A stretch of 64,000 nucleotides of DNA from Marsupella aquatica (taxonomy: Eukaryota; Plantae; Marchantiophyta), in assembly GCA_973895155.1 (NCBI GenBank), contig OZ316891.1, positions 29,866,331 to 29,930,330 on the forward strand. The letters run 5' to 3'. Under the pieces are notes generated by a model, which did not search any database, had not been told where the DNA came from, and saw only the letters and a list, made by a program, of their open reading frames with translations. The position numbers were made by a program, and so were the translations under genes. Shown here piece by piece: positions 1 through 58,518 of the stretch. Each line of letters begins with the position of its first letter. Position 1 is the stretch's first letter.

Positions 1-796
1 CAGCCAATACAGATTTTGAATTTGTCCAGGCCCTAATCCAATTATTTCTCAAGGTAAGCCTGAACCTGGTGTCAGTAATTTTGGATCAAGTTCTTTGTGT
101 TGTAGTCACTCCAAATACTGTCTAGGCATCCTACAGTGAAAAGTCTGAAGATGGCCAAGCTTTAAAGAAACTCGTTTTTGTTTCTTTGACAATTTGGTAG
201 AAACTGAAAATGTAATAGAAACGAGAGTTGCATTGAATCGAATGCAGAATGATAATGAGCCTATCTCAGACTTACAATGTACCTCGTGCTTTGACAGATT
301 CATGGGCAAACAATTATCAGGAATTCTCGCGTGCAAGAAAAGTCGAAAAGGCTCCTTGATTTACAAGGGTTGTCCTGGCAAAGACTGGATTCCACATTCC
401 AAAAGATCCGATGCACGGTTGCTTTTTTATGTAATTCACAACTGTAGCTAATACAAAAATTTTGAAAGAGAGTTTCCCCTTTGCAATCCATTCGTCTTCA
501 CCCTTAGCCAAGAGAGTTTTGCTGTCATTACCAGCTCTGGGCATTGAAATTAATGGCGTGGTTTCCTTGAAGCTATGTATTTGATCATCCTAATTTCAGT
601 TACCCAAGTGGGAGGCACTTGCATGCTGCTAAGGTTTTGAGGTGTGCCAATGAAGCTCATCCATATTGACCGTGAGATGTGGGATAGGGGTAAGGGGTCT
701 CTTTACATAATCTTTGCCCCATATCTGGCTTCCATAAAATTTGTCTCAGATCTCGTCTGAATCGATCATTCAAAAATCTTTCCCCCATATCTCGGC

Positions 797-929
797 CCTT
801 CAAATTTGCCTGAGATCAAGTCTGGATCATTCGAAAGACAACTGGAAAACTTATCTACACTTCCTTCAAATTTGCCTGAGATCAAGTCTGGATCATTCGA
901 AAGACAACTGGAAAAACTTATCTACACTT
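797..929. repeat. Tandem duplication, 2 x 66 bp
   Basis: CCTTCAAATTTGCCTGAGATCAAGTCTGGATCATTCGAAAGACAACTGGAAAA(A)CTTATCTACACTT occurs twice in tandem and shows up as repeated peptides in ORFs 741..983 and 806..1096. Confidence 0.9.
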
Positions 930-976
930 CTTGGAGGTTTAAGGGTGCGAACCTCTTTGAAGGCTCATGGAACACT

Positions 977-986
977 CCCCTAAAGC
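977..986. repeat. Left target-site duplication CCCCTAAAGC (partner at 12551-12560)
   Basis: Identical 10-mer (11 with the next G) lies just outside both ends; 9-11 bp TSDs are typical of MULEs. Confidence 0.75.
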
Positions 987-2883
987 GGGGGTATTTACAA
1001 ACGACAGGAACCAGGAAACAGCAAACAGTTACTGTTACCAGGAGAAATGGAAAAAAGAACATGGGATTGAGTTCCATTATTTGGTCAAGAAGTTAAAAAA
1101 ACACCATCAATAAACCCCATTTTCAGTTGTTTTCAATACCACCATCCAATTGTCAAGGAAAGTAGGGGCCATTAGAATAAAGGTGTTGCCGAAAACCGGT
1201 GATGGCCAGCGCACAACGCTAGTATGCCGGCAGGGAAGGGCAAAAATTTAGGTATTCATAAAATAACGAAAAAGATGGAGATTCTACGTAACGTCAATCG
1301 AGAAGAGAACAGTAAAGTTAATGACCATTAGAAAAAGGCGTTGCCAAAAATATGCGGATATTAGCAGCGCCCAGCGCTAGTATGCTGGAAGAGATTGTCC
1401 GTCACATCAATCGAGAAGTGAACACAGGAAACTCAATTTGAAGCATTTCCAACAAAGAGAGGCAATGGCAGACGTTGAATATTTTCAGCGATGGGCGCTA
1501 CATTAAATGTCGGACCTCAAGAAATCAACGTCTAAACACGGAATACAATGACCATAGGCAGCGCTCGGCGCTAGCTCAAATCTAGGAATCAATGAATGAC
1601 CATGAAAGAACAAGAGAGCCGATCCAAAAGTGCATTCCTTAATTCCAAAATTGGTCAAAACATATAACCGGTATTACACCATCCGCAGATCATCTTCAAA
1701 TCAACCCACGACATAACATGAACATAAGCAGCGCTCGGCGCTAGCTTAAATCTAGCTATCTTAAATGTAGCCCGCCCTGGCCCGTATGTGCTTTATCTCG
1801 ACCTGAGCCGCACATAACAGGGCCGCTGATCCAAAATGGGCCAAAGATGGAGCCGGAAATACATGAACTTAGAATCACCCATAGAAGAAATCCCACGGTC
1901 CAAGACGAACAAAAGCAGCGATCGATGCTAGCTTAAATGGAAACCCTATGGCCACTGAAGCTTGTGTCACTGAAACCATCTCCGTCGTGAATAACTTTAG
2001 CTCTGCGATTGGCAGTCGTCGTCGATGCCCGCCCTGGCACGTCTGGGGTTTTGCTTGAAACCTAGACCCCTGAGACGCACATAAGAAGACGAGGGGCGCC
2101 AAAACTCCGAACTCTGATTCCCGGGGTCTGGAACATTTGTATCTAGGAAGTCAACACGTCCCAGTCGCTCTTGTACTCGTAGCTCAATAGGCTAAATACC
2201 ATCAGCAGGAATGAGAGAATGAAACGAAAACCGATCAACAACTGCGAGCGGAGTGTCCCGGTCGTTAATCCAAGGTAAGTTCCTCTCCCCGGGACTAATC
2301 GCCTCATCATAAGGAAGAGAAAAATGATTCCGGAAGGTCGAGGTCTCGCTGGATGTGTCACCATGAATGGACTCGAAGGAGCTAAAGTGACTCTCGTCCG
2401 GTCGAACTCTGGAAGGAGCAAAGAAGGCAAGCATCTCCTCCACAGACATGATCTCCTTCTTCTCCATCTGGTGGGCACTGTTAAACGCAATCGAGGCTAA
2501 TGACAAGACCGGTGGTGTTGAAATGACTCGACTTCGAGAGAGGTTGTGTTTGAAATAACTTGCAAGAGTGACCCAATGGAGAGTTTAGGTTCGGAGATCA
2601 GCAAAAACGTATCACAGAAAGGTTCAACGCAAAAAGGACCGTTGAGAAAGAGACGACTGTTCCGGTAGCGACAAAATATGCGGGGCCAAGGAACGGACGG
2701 AGGATTCAAAATTCGCAATTAGACAAATAGATGTTTGGGGAGCGCCCGGCGCTAGTAAGGGAAATGAGGAATTTAATCCATTTTATTATCAATGTAATGT
2801 AAACAAATCATATCTAATATAATAAATAAATGGATTAAGATAACAGCGCCCGGCGCTGGTAAAATGTAAGCCGAAAACACTCT

Positions 2884-3237
2884 TTAAGAATTGGACGATT
2901 CCGATTCGGAGCTCTGTGACCTCTCGGTAGAGACCGCCTCATCATCTACATACTTGCTCCTACAAACGTCGTCCACATAAGGATTTCGGACAAATTTTCT
3001 ATCAACTCCTCTTCGTAGCCGGAGACCTTTGTTTTCCCAACAAAGAGTCCTCTGATTGTCTTCCATTCTTGCAGCATTCTCAGCGTAAAAGGGTAAAACA
3101 AATGGTTTCTCCGGAGTGACAATTTCAAAACGAGCTACCTTTCTTCTGAGTTTGAAGCGTCTTCTCGTATTCCATTCGGACCTGGGTGAGAACAGAAGTT
3201 CGTCAACCGATTGTATGAATGGATATCACAAAGGCAT
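2884..3237 (-). pseudogene. Possible small third cargo ORF or exon (~117 codons, one in-frame TGA), unknown function
   Basis: ATG CCT TTG TGA TAT... reads through into ORF 2884..3066 (MPL*YPFIQSVDELLFSPRSEWNTRRRFKLRRK...SESESSNS). No family recognised. Confidence 0.3.
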
Positions 3238-3280
3238 GAAGGAACTGGAAAGGAGAAAGAAGCTTACGAGTTTCAGAACA

Positions 3281-6200
3281 TTACTCGGAAGAGTCATCGC
3301 TGTCACTCTGGCCAGCGGATTGTTCCTGACCCTTCCCCTCAGGTGTGCCATCCTCATCTTCGTCTACTGTACCACCACTTGACTCATCGTCAGAGTCAAA
3401 ATTGAGTACAGAATGGAGCTTGTCCCTCTTTTTCTTTTCGGGTGGCTGAATTGGGGGTGGCAAAGTTTCAACTTCCTTTGGAGAAAGTAGATCTAAGAAC
3501 ACCTTGGAACCAGTCTCAACGAAATCTTTCCTATTCTCCACTCCAATTACAAACCTCCCAGAATAGTCTCCAGCTACAAAAGAGCTACCCAACCCCACTG
3601 TCCAATCCATGAAAATATCCCTAGGACGAGTGATGAGCTCAATCACAGATTGCATGAATCCAACCGACAAACGGGCATTTCCAGCAAATTCCATCTCAGG
3701 TGTTGGATCGACTTTGAGAGAGGGAAGTCCAATTAAATTTGTTATTGAGGGATCTTCTGTGGCAGACAGAGGTCTAAACCTCGAGTCTTTTGGCACCTTC
3801 CCTTTTTCAGACACTCGAGAGAAGACGTCCAGCCTCAGCGTGAAGATCTGTAATATAACCCAAGCAAGGTATGTCAATGGATGCATTTGTAGACAATTTT
3901 TTAACGGCAAACCAGATGTCACAATGAGAAATTTACCTGTCGATCAGTCTTCGGCGCGTACATTGGAACTGACATGACAACATTGTGTGACGAGATGCAA
4001 TGAAACTTCTTTGAATCTTGACAAGCCGATATAACCTGAGACATCGGATCGTATTCCCCGTTATGTAAAATGGCCAGCATTCCGTCATCAGATAAAAATG
4101 GATCCATTCCACGAAAGAAAGATGTGGCCAAAGTGTGGTCAGGGACATTCCATTTAGGAACTTTTCTGTCTAGAAGAGATGGTTTAAGTCCTGTTGGAAG
4201 GTAGATGAAACCCGCGTGGACCCCAAACGATCTCTCCTTTCCACCACGCACAATGCCCTTCTCTCGAAAGCCAGACTTCATGAGATCCTTTCCCCACTTC
4301 TCTACACCATTCACCCAGTCAGGCTTCTCCCCTTTGTTAAACGTTGAGTTGTAGAATTCTGAGATGCTAGATTCAACAAGGCAATGCCTTGAAAGTCTAC
4401 TCTTGAAGTCCCCGACTTTGCGTTGAAGACCTACAGCAGCAGCACTTTCTCGAGAAGAAGATCCACCTTCAATGGTCCTTTTTCTCTTCTTCCTTGTACT
4501 GGTCGCATCCACCGGCGCGATCGCCTTCCCTTTGTCGGCGGGAGTAATTGGATCGGATGGTGCTCCGGTATTGGCTTCTGAAGCCTCTGGGGTGGCATCT
4601 ATCTTTGTATCTCCGCTCCCCACGGCGTCCGACTTTCTCCCTGTTCAAATGGATGTCAACGTGATATCCGTCAATAAAGAGACAACGACAATGCTAACTC
4701 CCAGCACTGGCCAAACTATCATAAGACTTGGCCTTAAATATACATCTTTCCGAGTAATAAATACCAATTCAGTTTCTAAAACATTGACTCTCATAACAGC
4801 GCCTGGCGCTAACAGATTTGGACTCCCATAGCAGCGCCGGGCGCTAACAATGTGACAGATATTGACTGCCATAGCAGCGCCGAGCGCTAACCAAAGGAAA
4901 CAAATTATACTTACATTTTTTCCCAGATCTTGTTGATTCACTTGGGGCCGTAGTATCTGCTCTTGCTTTGGCGCGAGGCTTCCTGCTTTGGTCAACATGA
5001 ACAATTGTTGTCTCGCATATTGTTTGCAATTCTGTTGTGGATTGATCCACATCATCCGGAAGTCCCTGCTTCATGTCAGAAACAACGTTGACTGGGATCT
5101 GGGACTTAGACAGCTTATGGAAAGCATCCTTTTCTCTGTGATCAAAGGGCGAGTCCCATCTATCTGTATCCAGGTACCATGGACAATGGGTTCTCTCCCA
5201 TTCACTCAAAGGTCTTGCTGGGAAAATTCCCTCGGCAGGATACATAGAATACAATTCAACTAAAGAATTACTCTCCGGTATGACAGTCCACTTGAGGAAG
5301 GCGACGGGATACGCCCAGAAGTAATCAGGATTGGTAGCCTCCATGTGGATGTAAAAACGGTAGAGATACCGTTTTGCTCGCTTCTGGTTCTTCAAAGAGT
5401 AATCCTCTTTGTTAGAATACTTCAAGGGCCACATTGTATTAAAAAACTTACCCTTGACAGAGTCACCGTATTTCCTCAAATCATTCGTAACTATTTCAAT
5501 GAGAGATTCGAATGATTCACATGCCCAATCTTGTAAGCGATTCACGGGAATGGTTTGTTGGACCTCTCGTAGAGCACATTGCAACATCCCCACCGCAATC
5601 CCTTCTACATTATTCCATGTAATCCAAGTGTGACACCACTATTTTACTGGATCATCATTGACGCTATTCGGATGGAAGAATTGTCTCCGGAGCTCCGGAT
5701 TGCAATGTGCTACAAGCAAAGTACTTCGTAGCTTGGCGTCAAGAGCCGAAACAGCTGTAAAAAGCCTGGCCCGGTCCATGGTACACAACACGGTATCTGG
5801 CTTCTTCTCTCGCTTATTCCTCTCCGTGACAACATACATCTCTGCGCACGTAGATAGAAAGTCCTCAAACTCTGGACTCAACAAAGGAGTGATTTTTGAG
5901 GTCTTAACTGCCCATTCCTTGGTTGCTTCCTTCATCATAACGGCATGCCTTCTGGAAACCTCCTCGACCGACCAAGGGGTACCGAGGGCCGCAGCGGACT
6001 CCATGTCAATCTTGAACTGGTTCGAATACGACTTAATCTTATCCTGACATAGAATGTACAAAAGAGCCTCCTGAGGCATCTTCTTTGTGTACCAGGATCC
6101 TTTTCGCGTCTTCACCCTGATCTGCTCAAACTTCTTGTAATTTGCAGGGTCGATGAGCTTACTATAGTACTCCAGGTCGTGCATCAAGATCCGCTTAATT

Positions 6201-7121
6201 CGATCGGCATCTAGGATCCAGGAGGGTTCCACAACTGCTTGTCCTAGCCTGAAATAAAAGAACGAAATGAGAACATATAAGCAGCGCCGGGCGCTCGCAA
6301 AACATGGCCTCAGAAAGTTATGCTAGAAAGAATGAACAATTCATAACGACTCACGAAGTTATGCACAAAAGGGTATCTTACTGGTTAACGGTGTGCATAG
6401 CCGCTTCGATTTCTATCAGCGAACCCTTGTCGCCATTGAAAATAGTACAAAGCACACACGGGTGGTACTTTGGGTTTTCGAGACTCTCTTGAGTGACAAG
6501 AGTCCACGAGTAAAGCCTATGGTTCCCGTCAAAAGTTGAGAACATTCTGTCCTTCAAAACTAGAAAATCTGGGTCGGCAGCACATTCTTCCTCGAATTTC
6601 TCGTTCTCAGATGTCCATATTGGATCCTAACTCTCATGAATTTCTTGAGTACAGGTGAGAAGCGCTCCCTCAGCATCGGTAGGCTGAACGTAAAACCTCG
6701 TTCCAATCGAAGAATTGTATCCCATGCTACGGAAAGAGTCTTTTAGCTTGTCAATGGAAGAACTGTCTTTCTGTAGAGTTTGGACAACCTCCATATGCAC
6801 CAATCGACATAGTGGAATTCGTGGAGGCTCTTTGTCAAACCCTCTGAAATCCTTCCCAAACGACATGACATGTTTTGAAATAAGATCCATCTCGGAAAAT
6901 GAAACATCTTGAATCGCAAATGTGTCAAGATTCTCCATCTTCTTTCTCACTGGTTTGGCAAACAAAATACTTGAGATTGGAACAAGCGATGCGGTGGACC
7001 TCGTTACTCGACGCGTATACACTGAACCAGAGAATGAAGACTCAGAAGACTCGCAATACCCACGATCCTGATCCCCAACCACACTATACCCCCTCGACGA
7101 GGAGGGGATTGCATCCATCAT
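3281..7121 (-). pseudogene. Transposon cargo gene: ParB/Srx-like N-terminal domain plus C-terminal beta-class N4C/N6A DNA methyltransferase-like domain; ~1114 codons, two premature stops
   Basis: Exons 7121-6382, 6248-4915, 4640-3937 and 3847-3281 joined by GT-AG introns give 3345 nt in one frame. In-frame TAG at 6627-6629 and 5639-5641. FSTFDGNHR lies at 6516-6542. IELITRPRDIFMDWTVGLGSSFVAGDYSGRFVIGVE resembles motif X-I of beta-class amino-MTases. Confidence 0.75.
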
Positions 7122-8042
7122 CTTTACGATGAAAGGTGTACGAACGGAATCCTCACGACTAATTACCAGTTCTCCGTACCATTAACAGTTGCGTCCGTAT
7201 TATATCCGATCAATGAGCGCTATTCCCCTCTTTGTAATCGGTTGGAGAGACGTTACTCATTGCGAACGACAAGATTCAATTTAATTTATCAGTGACGGAA
7301 AGCGACAATTTAGAAATTGCGATAAGTATTAATGTGAACTACCCTAAAATGTTTGCGTGATCATCACGCTGAACATTAGTTACCGTTAAATGTTTCCGTT
7401 GTCTCAACACCTTGCAGACAAACATGCAATGCCAGCACCGGGCGCTAACAAATAAGAGACTACCAAATTGAAGAACTTATAGGTGAACAAATGCTAGCGC
7501 CCGGCGCTAGCCATTTGAATAATTTCATTAACGTTCTTTTTAAGTAACAGATATTGTCAACAAACTCCTAAATGTACCTCTTTCACCTGTAGTAACCAAA
7601 ATTTACTTGATATTATGAGATTAAGTATATTGTATCAATACTAGCGCCTGGCGCTAGTAACAATTTACTGTATTTGCATCAATATTTCGTGTGTAATTAT
7701 GCTAGCGCCAGGCGCTAGTCAGAAGACTTTTCAAATTATGTCATTGTTATTCCAATGGCTTTTAGGTAGCGCCTGGCGCTAATGAAATGGACGCACTTGT
7801 ATAGACTACTATCTAGTCGTATTCATGTAATAAATATTCCTGACACCCGCACTTGACGGGCAAAAACGACAAATGTATCATTTATGATTTCAACGGACGC
7901 AAAGTTGTGCGTGTTCTATGTCGTATTGAAACGTCTCTTTCAACAGCCGGTGGTCCTTGAAGGGGTGTTATAAGCACAAGAAATATGGTTGGGATTGGGC
8001 TATTGCATGAATTACTTCTGGCCTAAACTTCTTTCGTCTACA
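7122..8042. promoter_or_regulatory. Divergent promoter region between cargo gene and transposase, with five palindromic motifs
   Basis: AT-rich spacer between head-to-head ATGs. (T)AGCGCCNGGCGCTA copies at ~7433, 7494, 7641, 7701 and 7768. Confidence 0.6.
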
Positions 8043-11000
8043 ATGTCGCGCTCAATTGTTATTACACGTGCTTGTACCCGGGAAGTCGTCAAAGTTCCCG
8101 TGCAGGTTTCTGATACTTATAGGCAAGTAAGCGAGAACTACCTGTGCGAGAGATTCGATTTGAGAATCAATGACATTCTGTCGATTGTTCCTGAGGAGTC
8201 ATCGAGTGGAGGACTTGAACCAGCTGCGGCATTTGATGTGGATGACGGAATACATTTCTGGCACATGAATGTAGGACTTTGTTACACGCTTCATGTCAGA
8301 CCTACTCCTCTTCAATCGGTTGTTCAGGACATTCCGCCCCAGGTTGTTGAAATATCTGAGAGTGAAGATGAGGAAGTTGCGCCCAATCCTCCTGAGAAGC
8401 ACAAAGCTCCAAGCTCTAGTTGCCTTAAGAGTGAACCGGTGGCCACTTCCGGAGATGTCCAGAAGGTTTACCAGCGGAGTGCAATGGACACCTTACTCAA
8501 GGCCACGGGCCATAGTGAACTGTCAAGATTTATCTCGGCAGGGGACTTTCGACACGATCAAGTTCCTTGTTTGCCAAACAAGTACAACGGAAATATTGTA
8601 TTTGAATTGCCTCCCATTGTGGGAATGCAGTCCAAAGGATCTAGACTTCGTGACATGGACCGTGCCAAAGATTGTTACATTTGGACCAGGATTTTTCCGA
8701 CGACCGCAAACGTGCAACCAAAAAAACACTGGGAGTTTGGTAAAGTCAGTTGTACTGGGTTCGTCGAGTGCAGGAACAAGTCCTGTGAATATTTTTTGCG
8801 AAAGAAGAGATGCAATTTGAAAGCGTGGGCTGGTACCCCTAAGCTTAGTGGCCAGCATGTGGTGGGTTCGTTCATTGAAGAGGGTGGTATAGTATGTCAC
8901 TACTGTGAAAAGATTCCTTTTTGTGTGGACTCTTGCCCTGCTCGCTTGTTCTATATGTATCCACAGGTACTACTTGATACGGAAACCTGTAGTCACATGT
9001 CTCGACTCGCAGTCCATATAGGTGAACATAACCATCCGAGTAGAAAAGTTTTCTCCAGGAGTGCTGAAAAGATGGCCGAGGACTTAATAAAAAGAAATCA
9101 CAAAGCCAATCCTCTTGCAAAACCGGCTGGGATTTTGAATTCGGCGACTAGTTCGCTTGTGAAAGCTCTTTGCGAGAACATTGACGACATCGTAGATATT
9201 GAAGAAACCAAAATTTGGAAGTCTCTCATGGTTCTATCTACTCCTCAGAAATTTGCGTCCCTTTGTCGCAGCGTTCGAATGGACCAGGCTGGTCGTGGTG
9301 AGTTAGATTTCCTAGCTCAAATGCAAAGGTCAAATAATATTTCTTTTCTCCAAAGGTATCTTCTTCCGGGTCAGGGTTGTTTAGCAGATCGTCCCCACAT
9401 ATTCAAAATGTCAGTCAAGGGTCATGGATCTGGTGTAGATCTTTTACGTCAGATGCAACCTGGCGGAAGACTGGAAGGGGCTTGGGTGAGTTTTGATGTC
9501 ATGAAGCGAGTGACAACCGACTGGTTTACTTTTAGCGCACACGTTTACGATCACAACTTTCAAGCTCTTTGTACAATATTCACATGCGAACTAAAAGCTG
9601 AAGACACAGAGTCCTTTGAGAAGGCATGGAGAATTATGATAGAGGTTTGTAAGGAAAATGGGTTACATGAGGTTACCATTCAAGGTTTTATGGCCGACAA
9701 TGCTCAGGCTGGATGGATTGCCGTTCGCAATGTCTTTTTTGGGGGTCACCCAGACCCTGAACGTGAACGCTCCAATGCATTCCACTTTTACCAGTCTTTC
9801 CATCGACATTCCACGGAGGGAGTACTCGAGGGTAGGCAACCTGAACATCTAAGACTGTGGGAGAAATTGCGAAATGCTCCATCATTCGTTGCGGCGTACC
9901 GAGTTTCTAGGGAGATTGTGTTATGGTGGCAAGCAGGCAATTGTGTTCCAGGAAAACTGATGATGTTGCAGAGTTGGATATCATGGTGGGTCGTTCGATG
10001 GCGTCAGTGGGGGAATTTCATTCGCGTGGTAAGTTTTATCAATGCTTACAATAGTCACTTCGCCATGTTTTTTACTAGCGCCTGGCGCTGCTTTTAACTG
10101 TACAGATGCCAACATTATATTATTACATCATACACAATGCTAGCGCCTAGCGCTACTTTAAAATGTACAGAGAACTTTGCCACATTCATGACTTATGAAC
10201 ACTTGATAATACCAACATTACATTAATGTATATTATATACATTGCTAGCGCCTGGTGCTGCTTAAACAAATTGACTAAAGTTGGTCTGGATCCACTTCAT
10301 TGCAGAGCAAAAGCGCAGAAGAAGGTGCCCTCATTCCAAACTGTACAGCATCTGAGTCAAGGCACGCTTCAATGAAAGCATGGGCAACCAAAAAAATGGT
10401 GGGCCTCTTCGAAGCATGCGAAGTTGATCAAAATCGGGCTATATCTCAAGTTGCGGGTTACAGTGCATATCGGAAAGGACTCAATAGAGGGAAGGGGCCA
10501 ACTATCTGGGAATTGGCATTCCGTTCGGCAGACCAAGCAGGTTCACCCAAGTTATTCGAAGAAGCCACTAACATGATTCTTTCCAACTCTGCCGATTTTG
10601 ATCTGGGTAGGAATTCTCCTCTGAATGGAGATATTGTCACCAAATCGGTTAAGAGGAAGGGACTTGCAACTGGGATTGTCTCGCCACAAGACTCCCATCG
10701 GCATGACACCATTCTCATCACTACCCCAAATACTCGAGGATTCAAACGGAAGAATCTCAACAAGACTGAGTTCACTTCCATTCCCGCCAATGTAGTAGAT
10801 CCTGTAGTAGACCTCTGCGGGAGTGACACTTCAACAAGTGAAAGCGATTCCCTTGCGAACACCCCTGAAGCCACGAGGGAAACAACATCATCTCAACAAC
10901 CACGCAGTGCCCCCGCTGTGGTTCAACGTTTGCCGACAGAATCAGCTCCATTGGAAATGGACGTTCCAAGAGGAAGCTGGCATTTGAGACGGACGGCCAA

Positions 11001-11832
11001 ATATGGGGCAAGGCCACAGTGTAATAGGACCTTGTATGGAAATTCTGACAGAGATGAGTGTCGAAATCGTGTCAAGAAAATAGGGTTCCATTCTGCTGCC
11101 GGTGTTGTCGGCATTGTTGTTAGCGGACATCGCATTTTCAGAGGAACTCCCATTGCCGAAATGATATGGTTCTGCCCAAACAGCACATGCTACAAGAGCC
11201 GCCCGCGTCGCGGTGTTGAACGCCTTCCTCCTGTGCCGGACATCCTGCCAGTTGTGAAAGGAACAAACCTCTCGCCTGGCGAGATAGAGTACCTTCAAGC
11301 GCAGGGAGTCTCTATGGTCCAAACAGCTGCGACCTCTCGAACTCGAACTGCACCATTTGCATTCGACTTGAGAATCAATGTTAACACATTTCCAGAGAAA
11401 ATCAATTTTGCGGAGCCCAACGTGCGCCTTCGTAGCAGGAATGGGAGGAACTCCAGACCTCGCTCTAATCTAACTGTGGCTCACAGTAAACGAATGGAGT
11501 CGGCTCGAAAAGAAACTATGACTCTGGATGGAGAGTGGGATGTGATTAGTGGAATTGCTTTTGGGAAACAATTCAGAATACGGACTCACGAGAACCTTCG
11601 ATCGCCAAACACTTACTTTGTCCAAATGTGCATCTTCCCTACTTGTTCCTGTGAGGATTTCTTCCGTCGTCATTCCCGCGGCAAGCTGTATATGCCCTGT
11701 AAACATTTGTACAGGGTGTTCATAAATGTCTTCAAGTTTCATGTAGAGGAGTCTACCCTGTGTAGCCAGCCGATTTTGACAGTTGGAGAAGTCAGACTTG
11801 TGTTGGAGAGGCACAACGCAAATGGTTTATAG
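8043..11832 (+). CDS. MULE-family DDE transposase with N-terminal GCM/WRKY-like zinc finger and C-terminal SWIM finger, ~1170 aa, two exons
   Basis: Exon 1 8043-10028, intron GTAAGT..TTGCAG 10029-10305, exon 2 10306-11832, in frame with no stops. Motifs: CTGFVECRNKSC..CHYC..CPAR..HIGEHNHP; D1 VSFDVMK (9495), D2 FMADNAQA (9696), xxFH, E in ASESRH (10354); SWIM CSCEDF..CKH. Start codon inferred. Confidence 0.85.
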
Positions 11833-12867
11833 AGGGACTCGATTTATCCTTAACTGTCGTATTCCATAACGGATACTATGTTGTTTTGTCTTTAGTCAAC
11901 GGATATTACTTTAGTTTTTTATGTGGTTTTGGTTAGCGTCGGGCGCTGGTCAATAACTTATTTATAAAATTTTGTTTTCTCTGGTTAGTGCCATTGGATG
12001 GTTCCATAAGCTTTTATTATCGTCCCATTATTCTGCGTACTTAATCCTTTGTTAGCGCCTGGCGCTAGTTTCACACTCTGCCTGACAGACCCCTATGTTT
12101 CCGATAACATAATTCAGTCTACAACTGGCTTTGTGGTGGGTCCCGCCTGAGCATACTCCATCCCTCCATGGGTATTATGGTTAGCCTTTTTTTTAACCAC
12201 ACTAATGAAGTATATGAACTAAATGAAGCATTTAAAAGTGGACTGTTTAGAAATGTTGCTGTATATAAACAGCAGTGAATTGAATGACAACCCTTTTTTA
12301 TCTATAATCTGAGCAAGTGACAATGGATTGGAACCTCTCCGAGCAACTGTGAGCACACTTTTCCCTTATATCTGACGTCGTGTCTTATGCCAGTAGGAAT
12401 GTTTTTAGCTTAAGTATGTGGTTGTTCCTTACGTGAATTTTTGAAAAACTTTGCCAAATAGTACACCTTTACAATAACAATTTCCTGTTACTAGGAGATT
12501 ACCTGGTAACAGGAAAACTGTTTCCTGTCTCCACTGCTATACCCCCTAACCCCCTAAAGCGACGCTGTCATCTGCTGGAGATGTGTTTCGATCGAGAACT
12601 TCATCGAGCGTTCGATCTTTCTCTCGATCCCGTCCGAAAACTTGACACACCTTTTTAGTCGCAGCGAGCAATGTGCGATTCGAAGGGAACACATACAGTG
12701 GATGAGAATCACGATTCTTGAAAGCAGGGGAAGTACGTATGACTCACTCGTAAATTGAATCACCTTTGTTTGAACAGACCTCAACATTTTATCGTCTACC
12801 TGCACTAGATATAGCCTCGGAAATCTAGTACTGTTGCACTCATCGACACAATCGAACTCAATCGTGT

Positions 12868-24824: not shown

Positions 24825-27800
24825 CTAAATATGTAAAGAGGACATTTCCAATGTAGCTTGGGAAGTGTGCGCGGTAAAATCATTTAGCTTAGATGCTGAT
24901 GATGGGTCGGAAGATACTGCTAACGCTTGTAACATGTTCAACACATTTGACGGATCATCTAGATAATACTTTGCCTTGCTGGGTTTCTCCCCCACAGTGC
25001 AAGCAATCACTTCGGCCAATGGGGATTGTGGAGGCTCTGACATCGCGGTTTCAATACTTTCAAACATATCCTCATCTGACCTATCATCTCCAATACACAG
25101 AACGAAATCAGGTGGTGAACCCTGCTCTGCCATGAGTGATAACAGTCGCTCTCCAATGACTCCTTTGCTGACACCCTGTGTAAAAAACCATAGGGCCATT
25201 GAAATTAGTACCAAAGAATATATCTATACAAAACGGTTTCGCATCGCGCAATAAACTTTGGGGACGAACAAAAAACGACGGGAAGCCAGATGTAAATGAA
25301 AACTTCAATCAAGTTTTCACAATACCTGCGGTTTAACTTCTACAATATGGTGGCCACTCTTCACAGCCACCGGCTCATTTGCGAGAACACTTTCTAAATG
25401 ATCCAGGAGCTCTTTGGCCTGCCAAGATCCGAAGTCCGGGTCTGCATCTTGATAGTGCCAGACAATAGCACTTTCTTTCTCTTCTATGTTCGACCCATCT
25501 GTTGCCTCTCTGTACAACTTCAACACAGGGAGAGCAACGTCTTTCCACTCAAAACCTGGAACATTTACTGACGTCGTCCAATCATCTTCTTTTCTCCACC
25601 TGCATTGCATTGCAAGGCCGGGTTAGCAAGTCAGGACGATTGAAAATTTAGCAGTCGTAATCAAAAAGCTGCAACCATGCCGCAGGTCCCAAAATGAAAT
25701 CTTTTCACGGTAGCATAACATTGCATGAACAGAAAGATTGAACACAAAATACGTTCATTACTTCCGTTTTACTTGTGCTTCGGCAACAGAGACGGTGCGG
25801 TTATAGACAGACCCACAATTTCCTTTTATTTTCATGTTTGGATCACTTTCAAAACAAGTCCTTCCGTCTTCACTGCATTGCAGAAAATATTTCTCATGGT
25901 TTGAATTCCCTAGTTCCCATATCTTCAAGTTGCCGATCAAGCTTAGGGCTGGGCTGCTGGGCCGCTTCCAATCCCACCAGGCTACACTGCCGAAGAGTAG
26001 ATTTCATTCTCTACGACTGGAGAAGTACCGGAGGCTTCTATCCGCAATCACATCTTCTTGAGGAAGGCTCTTGATAACACCATTACACCTAAAGCTCCAT
26101 CAAATCCATCAAATTACACAACTAAATGTGACCTAAAGCCCAGTTCGATATGACAAATTGACGCTATCTCACTCAGTGACTCTAGTTTGTACTATACTCC
26201 GATTTTTAATCTTGACATTCCTTCTAAATTTCACTTTAGCCTACGCGAGAAGACCGGTGAATTATCCAGAATGGGAATCTAGACAGCTAATGGTCTGCAT
26301 TGCATCGCATTGACAGGTTGGACCAAACCGTGCATACCTGTAATAGAAGCCATGCTCTGCTGCAATCCCCAAACGGTCGCACGATTCAAACCAGTCAGAG
26401 AGAGGCGCCCGCCCTCGTCCACTAACGATGAAAACAACATTCTTTTCGTCGCTACAGATCGTGTTCAAAAGCTCCAAAACAGACGCACCGGGCTTCTTGT
26501 TGAGGGAGGTCTGGGGCATCATGGTGCCGTCATAATCCAGCAGAATGAGTCTCTTCTTACTCTTCTGGTACGCGGCAACTACGAAGTCCGTTTGCAGCTT
26601 CCGGAAATTGGGGTCTAGAGCCACCACCTTGAAACTCAGGCCGAATCCAATGCCATACGACGCCCGCCGTTGGTGCTCTCTGCAGGTGCGTTCCAAATCC
26701 CCCATAAAACTCTGAGCCCAGTAGGCGACGTCATGTGTGCTGACATACTTGAAGTGCTTCTCATGCCGCATTTGCTTCTCGGTATTGGGCAGCGTGATGG
26801 CCGTGTTTAGCGCATCTGCCATGGCCTCGATATTCCAAGGATTGACCCGAATAGCTCCACTCAGAGATGGTGAACAGCCAATGAACTCCGAGACAATCAG
26901 TGTACTATTACGTCCAGCACCACTCTCAGCACTACCTGATACGGAGTAAAGAGGAGGAGATGACCCCACCTGGGGCATTTGGGGCTCAGCCTCCAAAGAA
27001 GTAATACCCTCCCGGCAAACAATGTACTCATAGGGGATGAGATTCATCCCGTCTCGGACTGGTGTGACCACACAGCAGTCAGCTATGGCGTAATAGGCAA
27101 TCCTCTCATACAGAGGTACACTCCTCTCCAGGAGCACCACCGGTTGGTACCCTTCCCAGCCAAACTCCCTGTTAATTCTCCGGGCAATAGTGCTGGCCTC
27201 GTTCTGAATTTCCTGCACCTCCTTGCCTTGGCCTCTCGCCGGGTTGACGATTTGGATAAGCACCACCCTGCCCCTTCTCTCGTCATGCTGCCGTAGCAGC
27301 TGCTCCATGGCCAGTAGCTTGAGCCCAATGCCTTTGAAAATATCCATGTCGTCCACTCCCAGGAGGATGGTTCTCCCACCATATTCGGCCTTGAGCTCCC
27401 CAGCCCTCCACCCGGTTTCCTTGCTATTGAGCCTGGAGGTCAGCTGGCCCATGTGGACACCCACAGGCATGATCTTGATGCCCACGGTCCTCCCGTAGTA
27501 CTCCAATCCCATGTACCCTCGCTTGGATTCATAGACGAGGCCCAGCATTCGGCTACAGCATGACAAAAAATGTCTGGCGTAGTCAAATGTATGGAAGCCA
27601 ACGAGATCGGCATTCAGCAGGGCTCGGAGGATTTCGTCCCGCACTGGTAGAGTACGGTAAATTTCCGAAGATGGGAAGGGGCTGTGGAGAAAGAAGCCCA
27701 GCTTAATTTTGTTGAACCGCCTTCGGAGCATTGTGGGGAGGACGAGGAGATGGTAATCATGGATCCAGACGAAATCGTCCTCTGAGGCAATGACCTCGAG

Positions 27801-28466
27801 CACTTTCTCACCGAATACCCGGTTAGCCGAGACATAAGCCTGCCAGAAGGTGCGGTTGAAGCGACCTCCGTGATTCGGAGTGAGGGGAAGCATGTAGTGG
27901 AAGAGCGGCCACAATTGCTGCTTGCAGAAGCCGTTGTAGAAATCTGCTGTTAATCTGGCCGACAAGAATGCCGGCACGCAGTTGAACTTCTCCAGGAGAG
28001 TGGCAGCCACTTCGTCCTGCTCGCTCAAGTCTACCTCCACCTTCAAAGTCCCGATGTAGATTACCTCCATGTCATCCGCCAGCCCAGACTTGAGCTGGAG
28101 AAGGAGTGAGTCTTCATCAAAGGTGAAGCTCCAGGCGGTGTCTTCAGCGTTGCGCTGTGCATTCACCGGGAGCCTGTGTGCCACTATGATTACACGCTCG
28201 TAGCCGAGATGAGACGAGGGAGCCTCGGAAGTCACGCTACTGCTCTTCTCATCACTGATGGTATCTCCTTTGCCGTCTGATAGAATACCAGGTACTGTGT
28301 TCACCCTGGGAAGCTTGCCGGTGCGCCCAATGCGAACTCCTCCTCCTCCAGTTCCACCACCTACTCCTTTTTCTCCTACTCCTCCTCGTCTTCCTGTTCC
28401 CAGAGAACCCATATCCCCCGGTCCCATGGAAAGATCCAAGAGATTGGCATACGATCTTGACACCAT
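24825..28466 (-). CDS. TPS: Class II trehalose-6-phosphate synthase/phosphatase (TPS5-11-like), 917 aa, three exons
   Basis: Exons 28466-26338, 25599-25326 and 25175-24825 total 2754 nt. Motifs MVSRSYANLLDL, WIHDYHL, GFFLHSPFPSSEIYRTLP, RDGMNL, LDYDGTM, EVKPQGVSKG, GDDRSDEDMF. The two-intron layout is typical of class II TPS. Confidence 0.95.
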
Positions 28467-29776
28467 CCCTTCTCCACCTCCCTGATTTCCTGCTCGCCGA
28501 CCACCAAAACCTCACTCGCTGCCCCTGCCACCTCGTCTGCTAATAAATTGAGCTTAGGATTCAAGCTGATTTGCAACATTGATCGGGTAATTCTTCCTCA
28601 TTAATTTGCCCCTCGTCTGCTAACGTCTCCTGCCTAATTTTGGCCTTCGTCTAACTATGGTGTTTTATGAAACACTATCCACCATCAGGGATACTGCTGC
28701 TGCTGCTGCTACAACTGCTTCCTCCTGACCATCCTGTCGACATGAAGAACAAATCGAATAGCAGCTGTGATACTCAAATCTTCAAATTCCTTGCCCCGCC
28801 TCACAATAGCCTGCTGTGAGGACGAAACGCTAGGCTCGGAAACGGAAGGAACGTCACCAATTCAACTGCCATCCAAAAGTATCTGAGAACTGCTGCTGTC
28901 GCTGCTGCTGGGATTGGCACTTTCCAACCCCTCCCGCCCCCTCCCTTAAAACCAACCCGAAAAAACTCTGCGTGTCTCAATGGCAAACCTCCCAGGGGTG
29001 GACTTTGCGTGCACGCCCACTGTCGGAACTACCACACTCTGATTTCCTTCTTCGGCTGGCTCCTTTGCCTCGCTTTGGTTTCCTGGCTGGCTGCCTCGAC
29101 CTGGCTTTCGCTTGCACTGAAGCCGGGAGACAAAGTGGATATTGTTATTCAAAGCGAAACGGTTCCTTTCCATCAAACTTGCTCTCCATCTTTGCTCTCT
29201 ATCAACACTGGCCCTCTGCCGCCCACAAAAGTCGTTTCAATCTATGCTTACATCTGCTAGAAAGCAACGTACCTTCCAGCACAGAGACGAGCAAAATCCA
29301 CGAGGAACGGGACAGCTCAGCGGAAACAGGAGGGCCGAAGTCGATCCACGGAAGCAGATCAGAAATCACTCACAATTCTCCTTTACATTTGCTCCTCTGT
29401 GACATTAATGCCGCTCACCGGCAGTAAACACGGTCATCGCTTGTCCAAAATCCTGTCAAACCAGGCCACGGATTTCAAGCAGTACTTGTGCACCACCACC
29501 ACCACCGCCACCGCCGCCGCCGCTCACTTAACACGCTCGATCAAAAACCCAGCTGGGAAACGGAGAGTGCGTAAAAAGAATGAAGAAAGCCAACCGTCCT
29601 GAGTGCAACAAGACCAGACCAGGCTTCGTTTAGTTCGGTCCGGTTTGGTTTGTTAGGAGGCAAACACAAAGAAGACGAGAAGAAGAATGTCAGTCGCCGC
29701 AAGTGGCAGCCGTTTCCTTCACAGAAAGAATGGAGGATGATCACTCCTTCCTCTCCAGCGCGATGAGGAGGCCACG

Positions 29777-36129: not shown

Positions 36130-38740
36130 CAAACAAAAAAAAATTGTGAATACTTGTTTATTAGCGAAGCCACCGCGGTGAAGACCAGCGCGGCAGAAAA
36201 CAACCACACCGAGGGCCTCACACACCCCAAACTGAGACAACATGCCAAAAGCCACCCCAACAGTTCACAAGGTCACCTCCTAAAGAAGGACCAAGGGGGG
36301 AGAAAGCAAAAAAACTAAGCAACTCAACAGGGAAACAATGCACCGGCCGCAAGCAAATGGGGGCCCCAATACTGGAATGAATAGAGCTCCAACAGCAAGT
36401 ACCCAAGCTATGCGTGACTAGTGCCAATAGAAGCCCTAGCAGTCAATTTAGTGAGTTCAAGAAGGGTCTGATGTAACCTTTTGGCCTTCTGCACACTGTG
36501 AGTCCGCTGGAGGGTACCATGAACTTGAACAGCAGCATTGTTGAGAATGATGTGCAAAGGAAACCTGGTAGAGGTAGCATGATACGTGCGTTGCTGTTGC
36601 TCAACCCAGATGGTGCTAAGCATCTCGTGAATGAGGATCAGGAAGCCAGGGTTGCGCTTTTGGGACCTTATAGCAGTGTCAATCTTGCCAAAGGAGCAAC
36701 CAACAGCCTTGTTTAGACTGGTGCCAATAGCAATGATTTCAAGATGAGACCAACGGGGCCGCAACCTAGCCAGGACAATCATAGAACAAGTGTTCAATGG
36801 TCTCCGTGTGTCCTTGGCAGGGGGTGCAATGGCCATTGCTCACCGTCCATTTCAAAGCACGCAAATTGGAGAAAAACCTTGCATGGAGTACCTTCCAAAA
36901 CACGAGTTTAACAATAGGAGAGGTCCAACCTTTCCAAAGATGAGTCCACCGGCTCCTCCAGAGTTCTTGTGTGTCAAGAGAGAACCACCTATGATTGAGT
37001 TGGACCATGGGGGTAAGTTGTTGTTGCACCATTGTCGCCCACATCCGAGCCCACATCTTGGTAGGAAGGTGCCACCTTCTCTTCACACCAGTGGGCCATT
37101 TCCAAACCCACCCCTCAGATGTGAGGAGTCTCCCCATTGTTGGCCTCTTGGAGGTGTTCAAAAGACCAAGGATTTGTGGAAGAAGTCAAGTAGCGCTATG
37201 TCTGGTCAATTGAAGCGAACCTTGGACCTGTTCTAGAGTTTTCCAGCCATGACCAGGTGTGGAGAGGTTGTCCACAGTGCAAGCCACAGTGAAGACCTTG
37301 CTGGTGGCAAGAAAACTCATACCAACCCGCATCTCGGTGTCTGTGACAGTCAGCTGTTGATCCATAAGGATGAGAAATTGTGCAATTGATAGGGAACGAG
37401 GAATTTTCCCAGCAACTGTGCTAAAGTGGAGATGACAATAGGAGAGCTCCCAACCCCTAAGCAGACAGTTGAGGGTAGGTGCACACGCTACCTTCAAGCT
37501 AGGGGAGAGAAGGAGAAGATCAGTAGGGTCCCAGAATTTCCTCTCCTTACGATGAGGCCCTGTCCCTGCTGTGAGTGTGATCAATGACCTAGCCATGTTC
37601 ACCCAGGCAGTGTCAAAGCCAGTGAGGAGCTTAGTGATACTCCTCATCTTACACACGCGGGACTGAATCTCATAAGATCTGATGGTTAATCCCCCATCTG
37701 CATATGGTCTAGTAGTAGTGTCCCAAGCAACCAAAGCTTTTTTGGGAGCACCTTCTGAAGTGTGGCCCCAGAAGAAGATGCGACAAACCCGTTCTAATTG
37801 CTGGTACCTTGTCTTTTGGGTATTGAGAAGCATAAGATGATAGACAGGAATTGCCAGAAGGACATGCTTCAGTATGACCAACCTGCCAGCTTGAGTGAGG
37901 GTCCTATTGGTCCAATGCCGCAATCGCTTCCTGACTTTGCCCAAAAGAAACTTGACCTCTTGGCTAGGCTTGATGTGCGTGCCAATAGGACAACCCCAGT
38001 AGATGATGACCTCCCCCTTAACAGCAATACGGCACCTAGTGTGTTGAAACCAATCAGATTGGGCTGAATTGTCAAGCTGTATGATAACCAATTTGTCAAT
38101 GTTAAGAAGAGCACCAGAGACTCTCTCATAGGTATGCATAGCGTTGCATGCAATAACAAATTCCTCTTCGGTGGCTTTGAGAAAAAGACCAGTGTCATCA
38201 GCAAAGAGTTGATAGAACAACTTGCTGCCATCTCCAGTGTTGAGCCCCATCAATTCTCCAGCTGTCAATTCTCGGGGGTTTCACTTCCACAAAAATGACA
38301 TATCACATGCGACGAAGGATAGGGTCATTTTATTGGTTCTAAGGGAAGACTTAAGAATTTTTGTAGAAGACCAATAGGGTCTTTTAAATTCAATTTGAGA
38401 CTTATAAGAACATTAGGTTCTTATTAATCCAATTTTTAGAATATTCCAAAAATATTCCAACTTTATAGGGGTTAAAAAATAAAATAAAATTCTTACATTT
38501 TAGGGGGTCCGAGGCCTAAACACGTCGCAGGCGATGGGGAGGTCCCCATATAGTGAGACCCCCGAGTGTCAATTTAGCTTCAAGTAGACACATCAAGGGC
38601 TGAGTGGCTAGTGCAAATAGCAGCGGGGCAGTTGGGCACCCCTGCCTAACCACACGCTCCAATAAGATCTCTTTAGTAAAGCCTCCATTGACATGGACCT
38701 TGGAAATAGCATCAAGAACCAGACCTTGGATCTAGATTTT
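36130..38740 (-). mobile_element. 5'-truncated, degenerate L1-like LINE (RT C-terminal part plus zf-RVT), interrupted by a MITE
   Basis: RQGCPTAPLLF (~38610-38650), QLFADDT, YERVSGALLN, AIPVYHL, FFWG, GGL, then WKVLH..C..CQGHTETIEHLFYDC; contains stops and frame changes. The 3' boundary is approximate. Confidence 0.85.
38271..38566. mobile_element. 296-bp MITE with 15-bp TIRs and 8-bp TSD
   Basis: CTCGGGGGTTTCACT ... AGTGAGACCCCCGAG (14/15 inverted match), flanked by TGTCAATT at 38263-38270 and 38567-38574. Removing it restores the LINE frame (EAKLTAG). Confidence 0.9.
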
Positions 38741-58300: not shown

Positions 58301-58518
58301 TGCTGCTTTCGTGGTACACGGCTGTACAGCTCTTGTGCGAAGCTGTCCGTATCTCTGGAATCGGGGAGATAGCTGTGAAGCTCGGTGATGAGCTGCTTCG
58401 TTGACGATGCCTTCTTGGCCAGACCTAGCACGAAGGAAATGACTGGTGGCAGCGAGTAACCCAACAAGGCATGCAACTGGTCTGATACCCATGCTCTCAT
58501 CTCCTTATCCTCCGCCAT
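55336..58518 (-). CDS. DHX16: Pre-mRNA splicing factor DEAH-box RNA helicase (Prp2/DHX16/ESP3-like), 1060 aa, single exon
   Basis: N-terminal [14 protein letters not shown]-like region; [47 protein letters not shown], then HA2/OB-fold C-terminus. ATG taken at 58518 (MAEDKEM). Confidence 0.95.

Follow-up and report, generated by a model that had tools for sequence, protein, structure and literature searches.

A Mutator-like transposon in the liverwort Marsupella aquatica with a ParB- and methylase-like cargo gene and a non-coding array of palindromes

Genes for ParB-like proteins and methylases are known from transposons of brown, red and green algae, for which self-modification of the element has been proposed; the sources consulted report no functional test. 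In the brown alga Ectocarpus, the transposon Sola1-1_Ec32 carries, opposite its transposase gene, a gene for a 1104-aa protein that joins a ParB-like to a predicted N4/N6 methylase domain and is proposed to bind and modify its own element (PMC12477816). The Plavaka elements of red algae encode PAG2 and PAG3, with a PF01555 methylase and ParB-like domains, and next to the ParB gene they have inverted repeats arrayed in tandem; homologues are also found in Mutator elements of Chondrus (bioRxiv 2025.02.11.637652). The VANDAL elements of Arabidopsis are Mutator-like elements (MULEs) with an accessory gene, VANC, for whose product binding and demethylation have been shown by experiment; the short motif, which differs between VANDAL families, has amassed by tandem duplication in non-coding DNA, namely introns, intergenic segments and termini (PMC5735166). 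In the liverwort Marchantia, a prokaryote-type beta-class amino-methylase with an intact TSPPY motif, DN4MT1, is encoded by host genes expressed in sperm, and the term 'ParB' is missing from that text (bioRxiv 2021.02.12.428880).

The window, that is, the whole 64-kb stretch of M. aquatica DNA analysed, contains an 11.6-kb element (positions 987-12550), the span of which is set by the copies of CCCCTAAAGC on its two sides (Table 1). The terminal inverted repeats align imperfectly over ~120 bp (local score 54, versus a best of 44 in 300 shuffles), and at the right end the repeat is separated from the target duplication by four additional bases. A contig from another sample (X3) links position 976 to 12552, with the target present once and lacking one C, and represents an empty site. 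Together, the 10-bp duplication, the imperfect repeats and the empty-site contig bear out the original prediction of a transposon bounded by terminal repeats and target duplications. In runs X1-X3, bins that overlap the element have a summed contig depth, not to be read as a copy number, of 285-11,440, versus 25-135 for the three that lie entirely beyond it; related copies in three samples cover both genes. The target duplication falls within the 8-11 bp typical of Mutator/MULE elements, the terminal repeats of which are often long or degenerate, as here; the element is a DNA transposon present in multiple copies and likely belongs to the Mutator superfamily.

As modelled, the transposase gene comprises two exons and 1170 codons without internal stops, in agreement with the earlier description of an intact transposase. 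The roles given in Table 1 to the FDVM, MADN and FHF motifs are presumed from inspection, and the FHF and SES-H motifs have what we take to be a MULE-like look. Two Asp positions are invariant in all 12 transposase relatives, across which the Pfam MULE domain gave no match; the PDB gave none for the transposase. The C-terminal CxC...CxH arrangement is present, with a Pfam SWIM score below the cut-off (E 0.54), and a SWIM finger is common among Mutator/MULE transposases, not unique to that superfamily. An affiliation with KDZ/Zisupton was also considered, prompted by this finger.

Table 1. Features of the element and its flanks (positions in the window)
Feature	Position	Strand	Remark
Left target-site duplication CCCCTAAAGC	977..986	+	single copy in empty-site contig
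Left imperfect terminal inverted repeat, ~120 bp	987..1110	+	begins GGGGGTAT
Five palindrome sites (1208, 1366, 1487, 1560, 1730)	1208..1742		partly in longer repeated units
Decayed palindrome site	near 1916		
Possible additional frame of 195 codons, interrupted by one TAG	1994..2584	-	weak DUF5030 match, below cut-off
Two palindrome sites, AT-rich gap	2741..2857		
113-codon frame just downstream of cargo gene	2884..3225	-	weak likeness to Riccia P0022 tail
Cargo exon 4: C-terminal half of methylase-like domain, acidic tail	3281..3847	-	motif I region DWTVGLG
Cargo exon 3: linker, N-terminal half of methylase-like domain	3937..4640	-	YLPT at motif IV, Tyr codon 4201-4203
Cargo intron 2, three palindrome sites (4798, 4833, 4876)	4641..4914	-	35-43 bp repeated unit
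Cargo exon 2: helical middle region	4915..6248	-	TAG 5639-5641 (codon 450); Riccia likeness
Cargo intron 1, one palindrome site (6283)	6249..6381	-	
Cargo exon 1: ParB/sulfiredoxin-like domain (predicted)	6382..7121	-	DGNHR (residue 198); TAG 6627-6629 (codon 165)
Divergent intergenic region, five palindrome sites (7434, 7496, 7643, 7704, 7768)	7122..8042		
Transposase exon 1: Cys/His-rich region, presumed first and second acidic motifs of the catalytic site (FDVM, MADN), FHF motif	8043..10028	+	
Transposase intron, three palindrome sites (10077, 10142, 10247)	10029..10305	+	
Transposase exon 2: predicted catalytic Glu (SESRH), SWIM-like finger	10306..11832	+	
Two palindrome sites, right non-coding end	11935..12066		
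Right imperfect terminal inverted repeat	12425..12550	-	includes 4 extra terminal bases
Right target-site duplication CCCCTAAAGC	12551..12560	+	

The cargo gene runs divergently from the transposase gene and, under predicted splicing, has four exons with GT-AG junctions and 1114 codons. A divergent spliced gene of about this length had been predicted and stands; the two in-frame TAG codons, to which the term 'stop-repaired' had merely alluded, mean that this copy cannot make the protein whole. The 17 silent and 23 replacement differences listed between copies in the cargo give a pN/pS of 0.38 (P 0.003), a ratio that covers the listed differences only. Among the 40 of 53 rows listed, none falls at either stop. 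Because related copies cover both genes, the cargo can be regarded as a regular component of the family. Relatives of the cargo are present in Riccia and in Adiantum: exon 2 is 24-26% identical to Riccia proteins (E to 5e-30), exon 3 matches Riccia P0022 (E 1e-7) and exon 4 matches Riccia P0163 (E 1.4e-10), which the Atlas places with PF01555 at 0.95. In the window itself, exon 4 matches PF01555 (E 0.0076) and a DpnA-type methylase (E 0.0016); for the Riccia relatives, the Pfam scores of this domain are below the cut-off. The domain order and motif I region, D-x-x-x-G-x-G followed by an acidic residue and positioned after motif IV, fit beta-class N4/N6 methylases. The C-terminal domain is predicted, from the Riccia relatives, to have a beta-class amino-methylase fold, and the likeness reported earlier holds.

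The N-terminal part of the cargo is predicted to adopt the ParB/sulfiredoxin fold, as judged from a structural model of the relative Riccia P0159 rather than of the window protein. Of 48,161 chains compared with this model, five reach Z >=5, all of them ParB/sulfiredoxin-fold proteins; the top six structural matches have that fold in common, and the best is a middling one (Z 7.0, rmsd 3.3, 99 aligned); Foldseek ranks ParB/Noc proteins first to fourth, again with a middling best E of 0.46, and the KorB alignment spans residues 26-392. The ParB-like fold claimed originally thus gains support on the Riccia relative. Sequence searches of Pfam and the PDB gave no match to ParB, and no helix-turn-helix was identified directly for the cargo family. 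Among the 189 relatives of exon 1 collected, the G, N, H and R residues are kept in 107, 111, 103 and 96 of 112, respectively, a later Asn in 77 of 80, and core residues are conserved over 116 aligned relatives. The likeness to bacterial ParB/Noc/KorB extends from the predicted fold to the conserved G-x-x-R, the later Asn and palindromic candidate sites; unlike the bacterial systems, there is no ParA, and the gene is a eukaryotic, spliced one. For residues 10-330 of a Riccia relative, the nearest Atlas clusters are DUF3723 (score 0.97), that is, PF12520, which fungal Starships carry as conserved cargo (bioRxiv 2021.12.13.472469); Pfam DUF3723 matched none of 121 members, so this link is a lead only.

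The element offers an unusually clean candidate site. The 13-bp palindrome AGCGCCNGGCGCT occurs 19 times at <=1 mismatch in the 64-kb window, always inside the element and never outside (chance expectation from 100 shuffles: mean 0.02, maximum 1). At <=2 mismatches there are 20 sites inside and one outside, and the ~22 copies originally counted are a fair figure once decayed sites are included. That they are non-coding is borne out: none of the 20 lies in a modelled exon, though exons make up 59% of the element; of eight non-coding compartments examined, seven contain sites, among them introns in the transposase as well as the cargo gene. The terminal repeats contain none: the outermost sites lie 221 bp in from the left end of the element and ~485 bp in from its right end. 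The 13-mer is two-fold symmetric, with a free centre base (C7 T7 G6 A1 of 21), and contains CG and CNG contexts; at four arm mismatches of this copy (1213, 7437, 10256 and 4883), other copies have the consensus base. The sites are embedded in longer repeated units, copies of which are gained or lost between elements, and, stemming partly from local duplication, are not independent counts; the 13-bp core is the sole sequence common to palindromes of different compartments.

The same divergent gene pair is found in a distant element, on the metagenome contig L012, where a different inverted-repeat array lies between the genes and adjoins the 5' end of the cargo gene; the pairing of transposase and cargo is thereby borne out. 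A cargo match was obtained in one of 13 metagenome loci, most of them too short, and locus L009, with ~3 kb upstream, has none; AGCGCCNGGCGCT is missing from 13 of 13 related loci. In Riccia sorocarpa, the sole transposase found and the closest of the cargo tags seen are 25 locus tags apart. A separate metagenome scan and two viral scans found no relative, and longer proteins sharing words with cargo exon 2 were likewise sought in vain, which is weak evidence.

Like the Sola1-1 and PAG genes, the cargo lies within a transposon opposite the transposase gene, as it also does in L012, and has ParB-like and N4/N6 methylase-like domains. The likeness to Sola1-1, compared by description alone, extends to length (1104 aa versus 1114 here); Sola1-1 differs in its superfamily, Sola, with a 4-bp target duplication, in its size of 21.5 kb and in its host, a brown alga, and the available part of the description mentions no motif array (PMC12477816). 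Membership of the present element in Sola is ruled out by that duplication length. In Plavaka, two genes share the domains (methylase + SET; ParB + 2OG oxygenase) and the arrays are tandem beside the ParB gene, whereas here the domains are fused and the palindromes dispersed over non-coding segments (bioRxiv 2025.02.11.637652). The combination, claimed as new, is not new in kind, because the fused gene of Sola1-1 and the ParB cargo with arrays of Plavaka are already described; the present element is likely a land-plant version of this algal transposon cargo. No description of the land-plant family was found in the literature, subscription papers and preprint supplements lying mostly outside the scope of the search. 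With VANDAL, the element has in common a family-specific non-coding motif; VANC has DUF1985/DUF287 and motifs of 8-9 bp, in contrast to the ParB- and methylase-like folds and 13-bp palindrome here (PMC5735166), and no Pfam match to DUF1985/DUF287 appeared in the window exons or in 121 aligned members.

We tentatively favour, as quite possible if a little short of probable, self-recognition of the VANC kind, in which the cargo would bind the palindromes of its own element and keep it expressed or mobile against host silencing. An intact copy would make a ParB-fold protein with a degenerate methylase-like tail; its dimer would read the two-fold symmetric 13-mer, by analogy with ParB at parS, and may extend over the element; the methylase-like domain would write no mark but bind DNA or SAM as a module without catalytic activity; the present copy, with its broken cargo, would be served in trans. 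The layout of the sites, in introns and other non-coding DNA as for VANC21, their absence from the terminal repeats, the free centre base with consensus arms in other copies, the excess of silent changes, the conserved core residues, the ParB-fold matches, the placement of P0163 and the L012 pair all argue for this reading. The middling fold scores, the broken cargo, the single match in 13 loci, locus L009 and the distance in Riccia sorocarpa count against it, as does the ability of a MULE transposase itself to bind motifs and activate its copies.

This last point gives the most serious alternative, which we still regard as unlikely: the palindromes would be sites of the transposase or of a host factor, and the cargo would act elsewhere, for example in transposition or targeting. 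The AtMu1 transposase does bind short motifs and activate its own copies, transposases act as dimers, and the CG and CNG contexts of the motif could be read by host proteins. However, AtMu1 peaks lay at terminal repeats, which the present palindromes avoid while filling introns, and the array in L012 adjoins the cargo 5' end, as in Plavaka.

A more doubtful possibility is that the cargo binds the palindromes and, in intact lineages, is an active methylase that labels the element as self by writing 4mC/6mA on its sites or close to them. Active beta-class amino-methylases have (D/N/S)PP(Y/F/W) at motif IV. In the window cargo, YLPT has Tyr in place of the catalytic Asp and lacks the aromatic residue as well, and none of the five relatives with a readable motif IV (DLPT, DLPT, DMPS and DMPT in Riccia, DVPF in Adiantum) has the full pattern. 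No A>C at 4203, in the Tyr codon and 23 bases within the border of the compared segment, reached 60% in two runs, both listed A>C places being elsewhere. The domain order and motif I region would fit an enzyme of this class, and the Riccia and Adiantum relatives retain the motif IV Asp and a downstream Trp. Moreover, bacterial-derived 4mC methylases function in Marchantia (bioRxiv 2021.02.12.428880), and an equal proposal has been made for Ectocarpus (PMC12477816). Against this stand the degenerate motif IV and the sub-threshold Pfam scores, and the methylase-like domain of the window cargo is probably no active enzyme, judging from its sequence. Of the suggestion that the cargo 'marks or shields' the element, marking is accordingly less likely than shielding or recruiting.

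Less plausible again, and very unlikely in our view, is binding of the palindromes that would condense or bridge the 11.6-kb element, joining its ends for transposition rather than opposing silencing. ParB proteins spread along and bridge DNA, and the terminal repeats are degenerate here. The elements reported with such cargo are large, at 17-21 kb (bioRxiv 2025.02.11.637652, PMC12477816); bridging does not account for the retention of a methylase-like domain in liverwort as well as fern relatives. That the cargo is carried along passively and the palindromes arose as by-products of local duplication, as the two stops and the repeated units varying in copy between elements might suggest, is highly improbable given the silent excess, the core residues kept across relatives, the 13-bp core being all that compartments share, and the same gene pair in L012.

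The original prediction is thus confirmed as a whole in its observation and partly supported in its interpretation, through the folds, the family-wide cargo and the gene pair in L012; the degenerate motif IV, the two stops and the prior knowledge of the kind weigh against it. Self-recognition, if true, would solve the VANC problem a second time and independently, and would put ParB to use in a eukaryote; the clean candidate site together with the full-length Riccia relatives makes it directly testable in plants. A wider proposal, speculative and on balance unlikely, is that Mutator-like elements of liverworts, ferns and probably mosses would run, in nuclear chromatin, a ParB-parS system like that of bacteria, with CTP-gated clamp loading at family-specific palindromes and sliding over the whole element, the methylase-derived domain writing 4mC/6mA in some lineages and acting as a non-catalytic 5mC shield in others, and protein and palindrome co-evolving. 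Finally, the 113-codon frame downstream of the cargo gene aligns with the P0022 tail (31% over 55 columns, pairwise E 2e-4), which weakly suggests an extra cargo exon or a small third gene.

Set beside the algal proteins by description, the Marsupella element is likely a land-plant version of a recently proposed algal kind of transposon. Ectocarpus Sola1-1 carries, as is predicted for Marsupella, a ParB and N4/N6 methylase gene opposite the transposase (1104 aa in Ectocarpus), and its authors suggest that such accessory proteins form a class whose members bind, and modify, the element that encodes them (PMC12477816). According to a Bostrychia preprint, Plavaka elements and the Mutator elements of Chondrus contain accessory genes of ParB and PF01555 type, and inverted-repeat arrays adjoin the ParB gene, a feature of red-algal Plavaka that is likewise compared by description (bioRxiv 2025.02.11.637652). 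The idea of ParB-methylase self-recognition is therefore already in print for algae, and the combination is not new in kind; the literature searched yielded no description of a Mutator-like version from a land plant in which the palindromes are dispersed and the catalytic motif is degenerate.

The element is a real, well-formed feature, bounded as predicted: it is flanked by a 10-bp target duplication, its two ends align imperfectly as inverted repeats with a score of 54 (44 for the best of 300 shuffles), and one contig from sample set X3 joins 976 to 12552 with a single target copy, an empty site. The target, in our view, resembles the plant telomere unit CCCTAAA. In three sets of public contigs (X1-X3), 2,026-2,973 pieces per run were placed on the region and summed depth over both genes far exceeds that of the flanks, and in a more distant organism 138 pieces span both genes with the flanks hardly covered, all these being contigs, whose summed depth is not copy number. 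The CpG observed/expected ratio is 0.73-1.21 within the element and 0.44-0.69 outside, compatible with youth or low methylation alike, the two not being separated. One unit of the left-flank direct repeat is missing from one X3 contig. The genes around the element, by their presumed identities, point to a land-plant host, and the named relatives suggest a non-seed plant.

Coordinates of features in the window and, in the last row, in metagenome locus L012
Feature	Position	Strand	Remark
Element	987-12550		
Target, left copy	977-986		CCCCTAAAGC
Target, right copy	12551-12560		
Right junction	12543-12560		partial additional target copy CCCCTAAC
Left-flank direct repeat	797-915		exact, 53 bp, spacing 66 bp
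Frame 3' of cargo gene	2884-3225	-	weakly matches tail of Riccia P0022
Second frame 3' of cargo gene	1994-2584	-	one internal TAG
Host frame beside element	26262-28511	-	presumably trehalose-6-phosphate synthase
Host frame beside element	37186-38280	-	presumably LINE reverse-transcriptase fragment
Host frame beside element	55336-58668	-	presumably intronless DEAH-box helicase
Palindrome inside 64-bp repeat array	2960-2983 (L012)		near-perfect, TTTTCAAGCTTGAAAA

The transposase is intact, as anticipated (two exons, 1170 codons, no stop). Separate searches returned 5 and 11 relatives in overlapping sets, one of them named, from Riccia sorocarpa; none of 12 family members matches Pfam MULE, and SWIM is matched only at E 0.54. 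Assignment to Mutator is likely, not proven, and is based on the 10-bp duplication (MULE range 8-11 bp), the terminal repeats and motif inspection.

The predicted four-exon, 1114-codon cargo model is supported by long Riccia proteins, P0022 matching exons 1 to 3 and P0163 exon 4, but the frame is interrupted by TAG at codons 165 and 450; since 110 of 116 aligned relatives have Trp at codon 165, the window copy is broken. A search with exon 1 brought up 189 relatives within an E limit of 0.001, and the 27 looked up for taxonomy include 14 from R. sorocarpa and 5 from Adiantum. Among the matches listed, the window copy differs from others by 17 silent and 23 replacement changes; the pN/pS of 0.38 is only suggestive of constraint, because 40 of 1,745 and 40 of 53 rows were counted. 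The two frames 3' of the cargo gene are possibly a third gene.

The predicted ParB-like domain drew no match in sequence searches of the N-terminal domain, and emerged from structural ranks of a relative, all at Z under 8, a range that can reflect common arrangement. The AlphaFold2 model, made on Riccia P0159 with 121 sequences, is confident in its N-terminal half; Foldseek ranks 1-4 are ParB and Noc, yet none at E 0.001. In a wide structural search, 5 of 48,161 chains reached Z 5 or more: PadC (Z 7.0, rmsd 3.3, 99 aligned), KorB (Z 6.7, rmsd 6.2, 199 aligned, residues 26-392), Pnob8 ParB, SerK, which we take to share the ParB/sulfiredoxin fold, and sulfiredoxin. This fold is read from the fact that the six best-ranked matches agree rather than from any single score. 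In the Atlas, P0159 residues 10-330 are nearest fungal DUF3723 clusters (0.97). DUF3723 is described as conserved cargo of Starships (bioRxiv 2021.12.13.472469); a literature search for it together with ParB found 0 papers, and, as a lead, it may be a ParB-fold transposon cargo.

The non-coding array of palindromes was confirmed: AGCGCCNGGCGCT has 19 matches at ≤1 mismatch in the window, every one within the element (chance mean 0.02), and 0 of 20 sites are exonic. The sites occupy 7 of 8 non-coding compartments, with none in either terminal repeat. The centre base is free to vary, and, among the matches listed, four arm mismatches of the window copy are the consensus base in other copies. The units that hold the motif have undergone local duplication, and their number differs from copy to copy of the element, as is also reported for the sites of VANC, the Arabidopsis VANDAL accessory protein (PMC5735166). 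We tentatively favour, at slightly under an even chance, a cargo protein that would recognise its element's own palindromes and, once bound, counter silencing, depositing no methyl mark in the Marsupella family. The main rival, unlikely in our judgement, makes the palindromes transposase or host sites; a 2026 preprint reports that the transposase of one MULE recognises motifs at the ends of the element and switches its copies on.

That the cargo is an active methylase is a still weaker contender. The predicted methylase likeness holds: the Atlas places P0163 among the PF01555 methylases (0.95), Pfam gives PF01555 at E 2.5e-5, short of the cut-off, and PHROGs gives methylases at E 2.4e-7; window exon 4 matches are weaker, and a SAM-binding motif is recognisable. 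The catalytic motif is not intact, reading YLPT in the window and DLPT, DLPT, DMPS, DMPT and DVPF in five relatives. The loss of Asp is probably not private to this copy, because no change to Asp at YLPT reaches 60% in either of two contig runs compared; degenerate motif and unrestored Asp together argue, from sequence, against an active methylase in the Marsupella family. End-bridging by the cargo is distinctly improbable, and a passive cargo has very little to recommend it.

Modest support for the layout of gene pair plus palindromes comes from the 14-kb L012, one of 13 related metagenome loci, in which a decayed transposase (+) and a decayed cargo gene (-) lie head to head. The stretch separating the two genes contains seven 64-bp units whose imperfect inverted repeat is unlike AGCGCCNGGCGCT (8-11 of 14 positions paired); such inverted-repeat windows number 8, where 500 shuffles gave 1.5 on average and 7 at most; the support is only modest because the units are tandem copies. 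AGCGCCNGGCGCT itself is absent from 13 of 13 loci. The remaining 12 span 1.1-4.6 kb; L009 has no cargo match in about 3 kb upstream. In Riccia, the nearest transposase and cargo tags seen are 25 apart (R1sor_024500, R1sor_024525), which is not evidence of linkage. In another of the loci, L007, AAACCCTAAA repeats are also present beyond the transposase.
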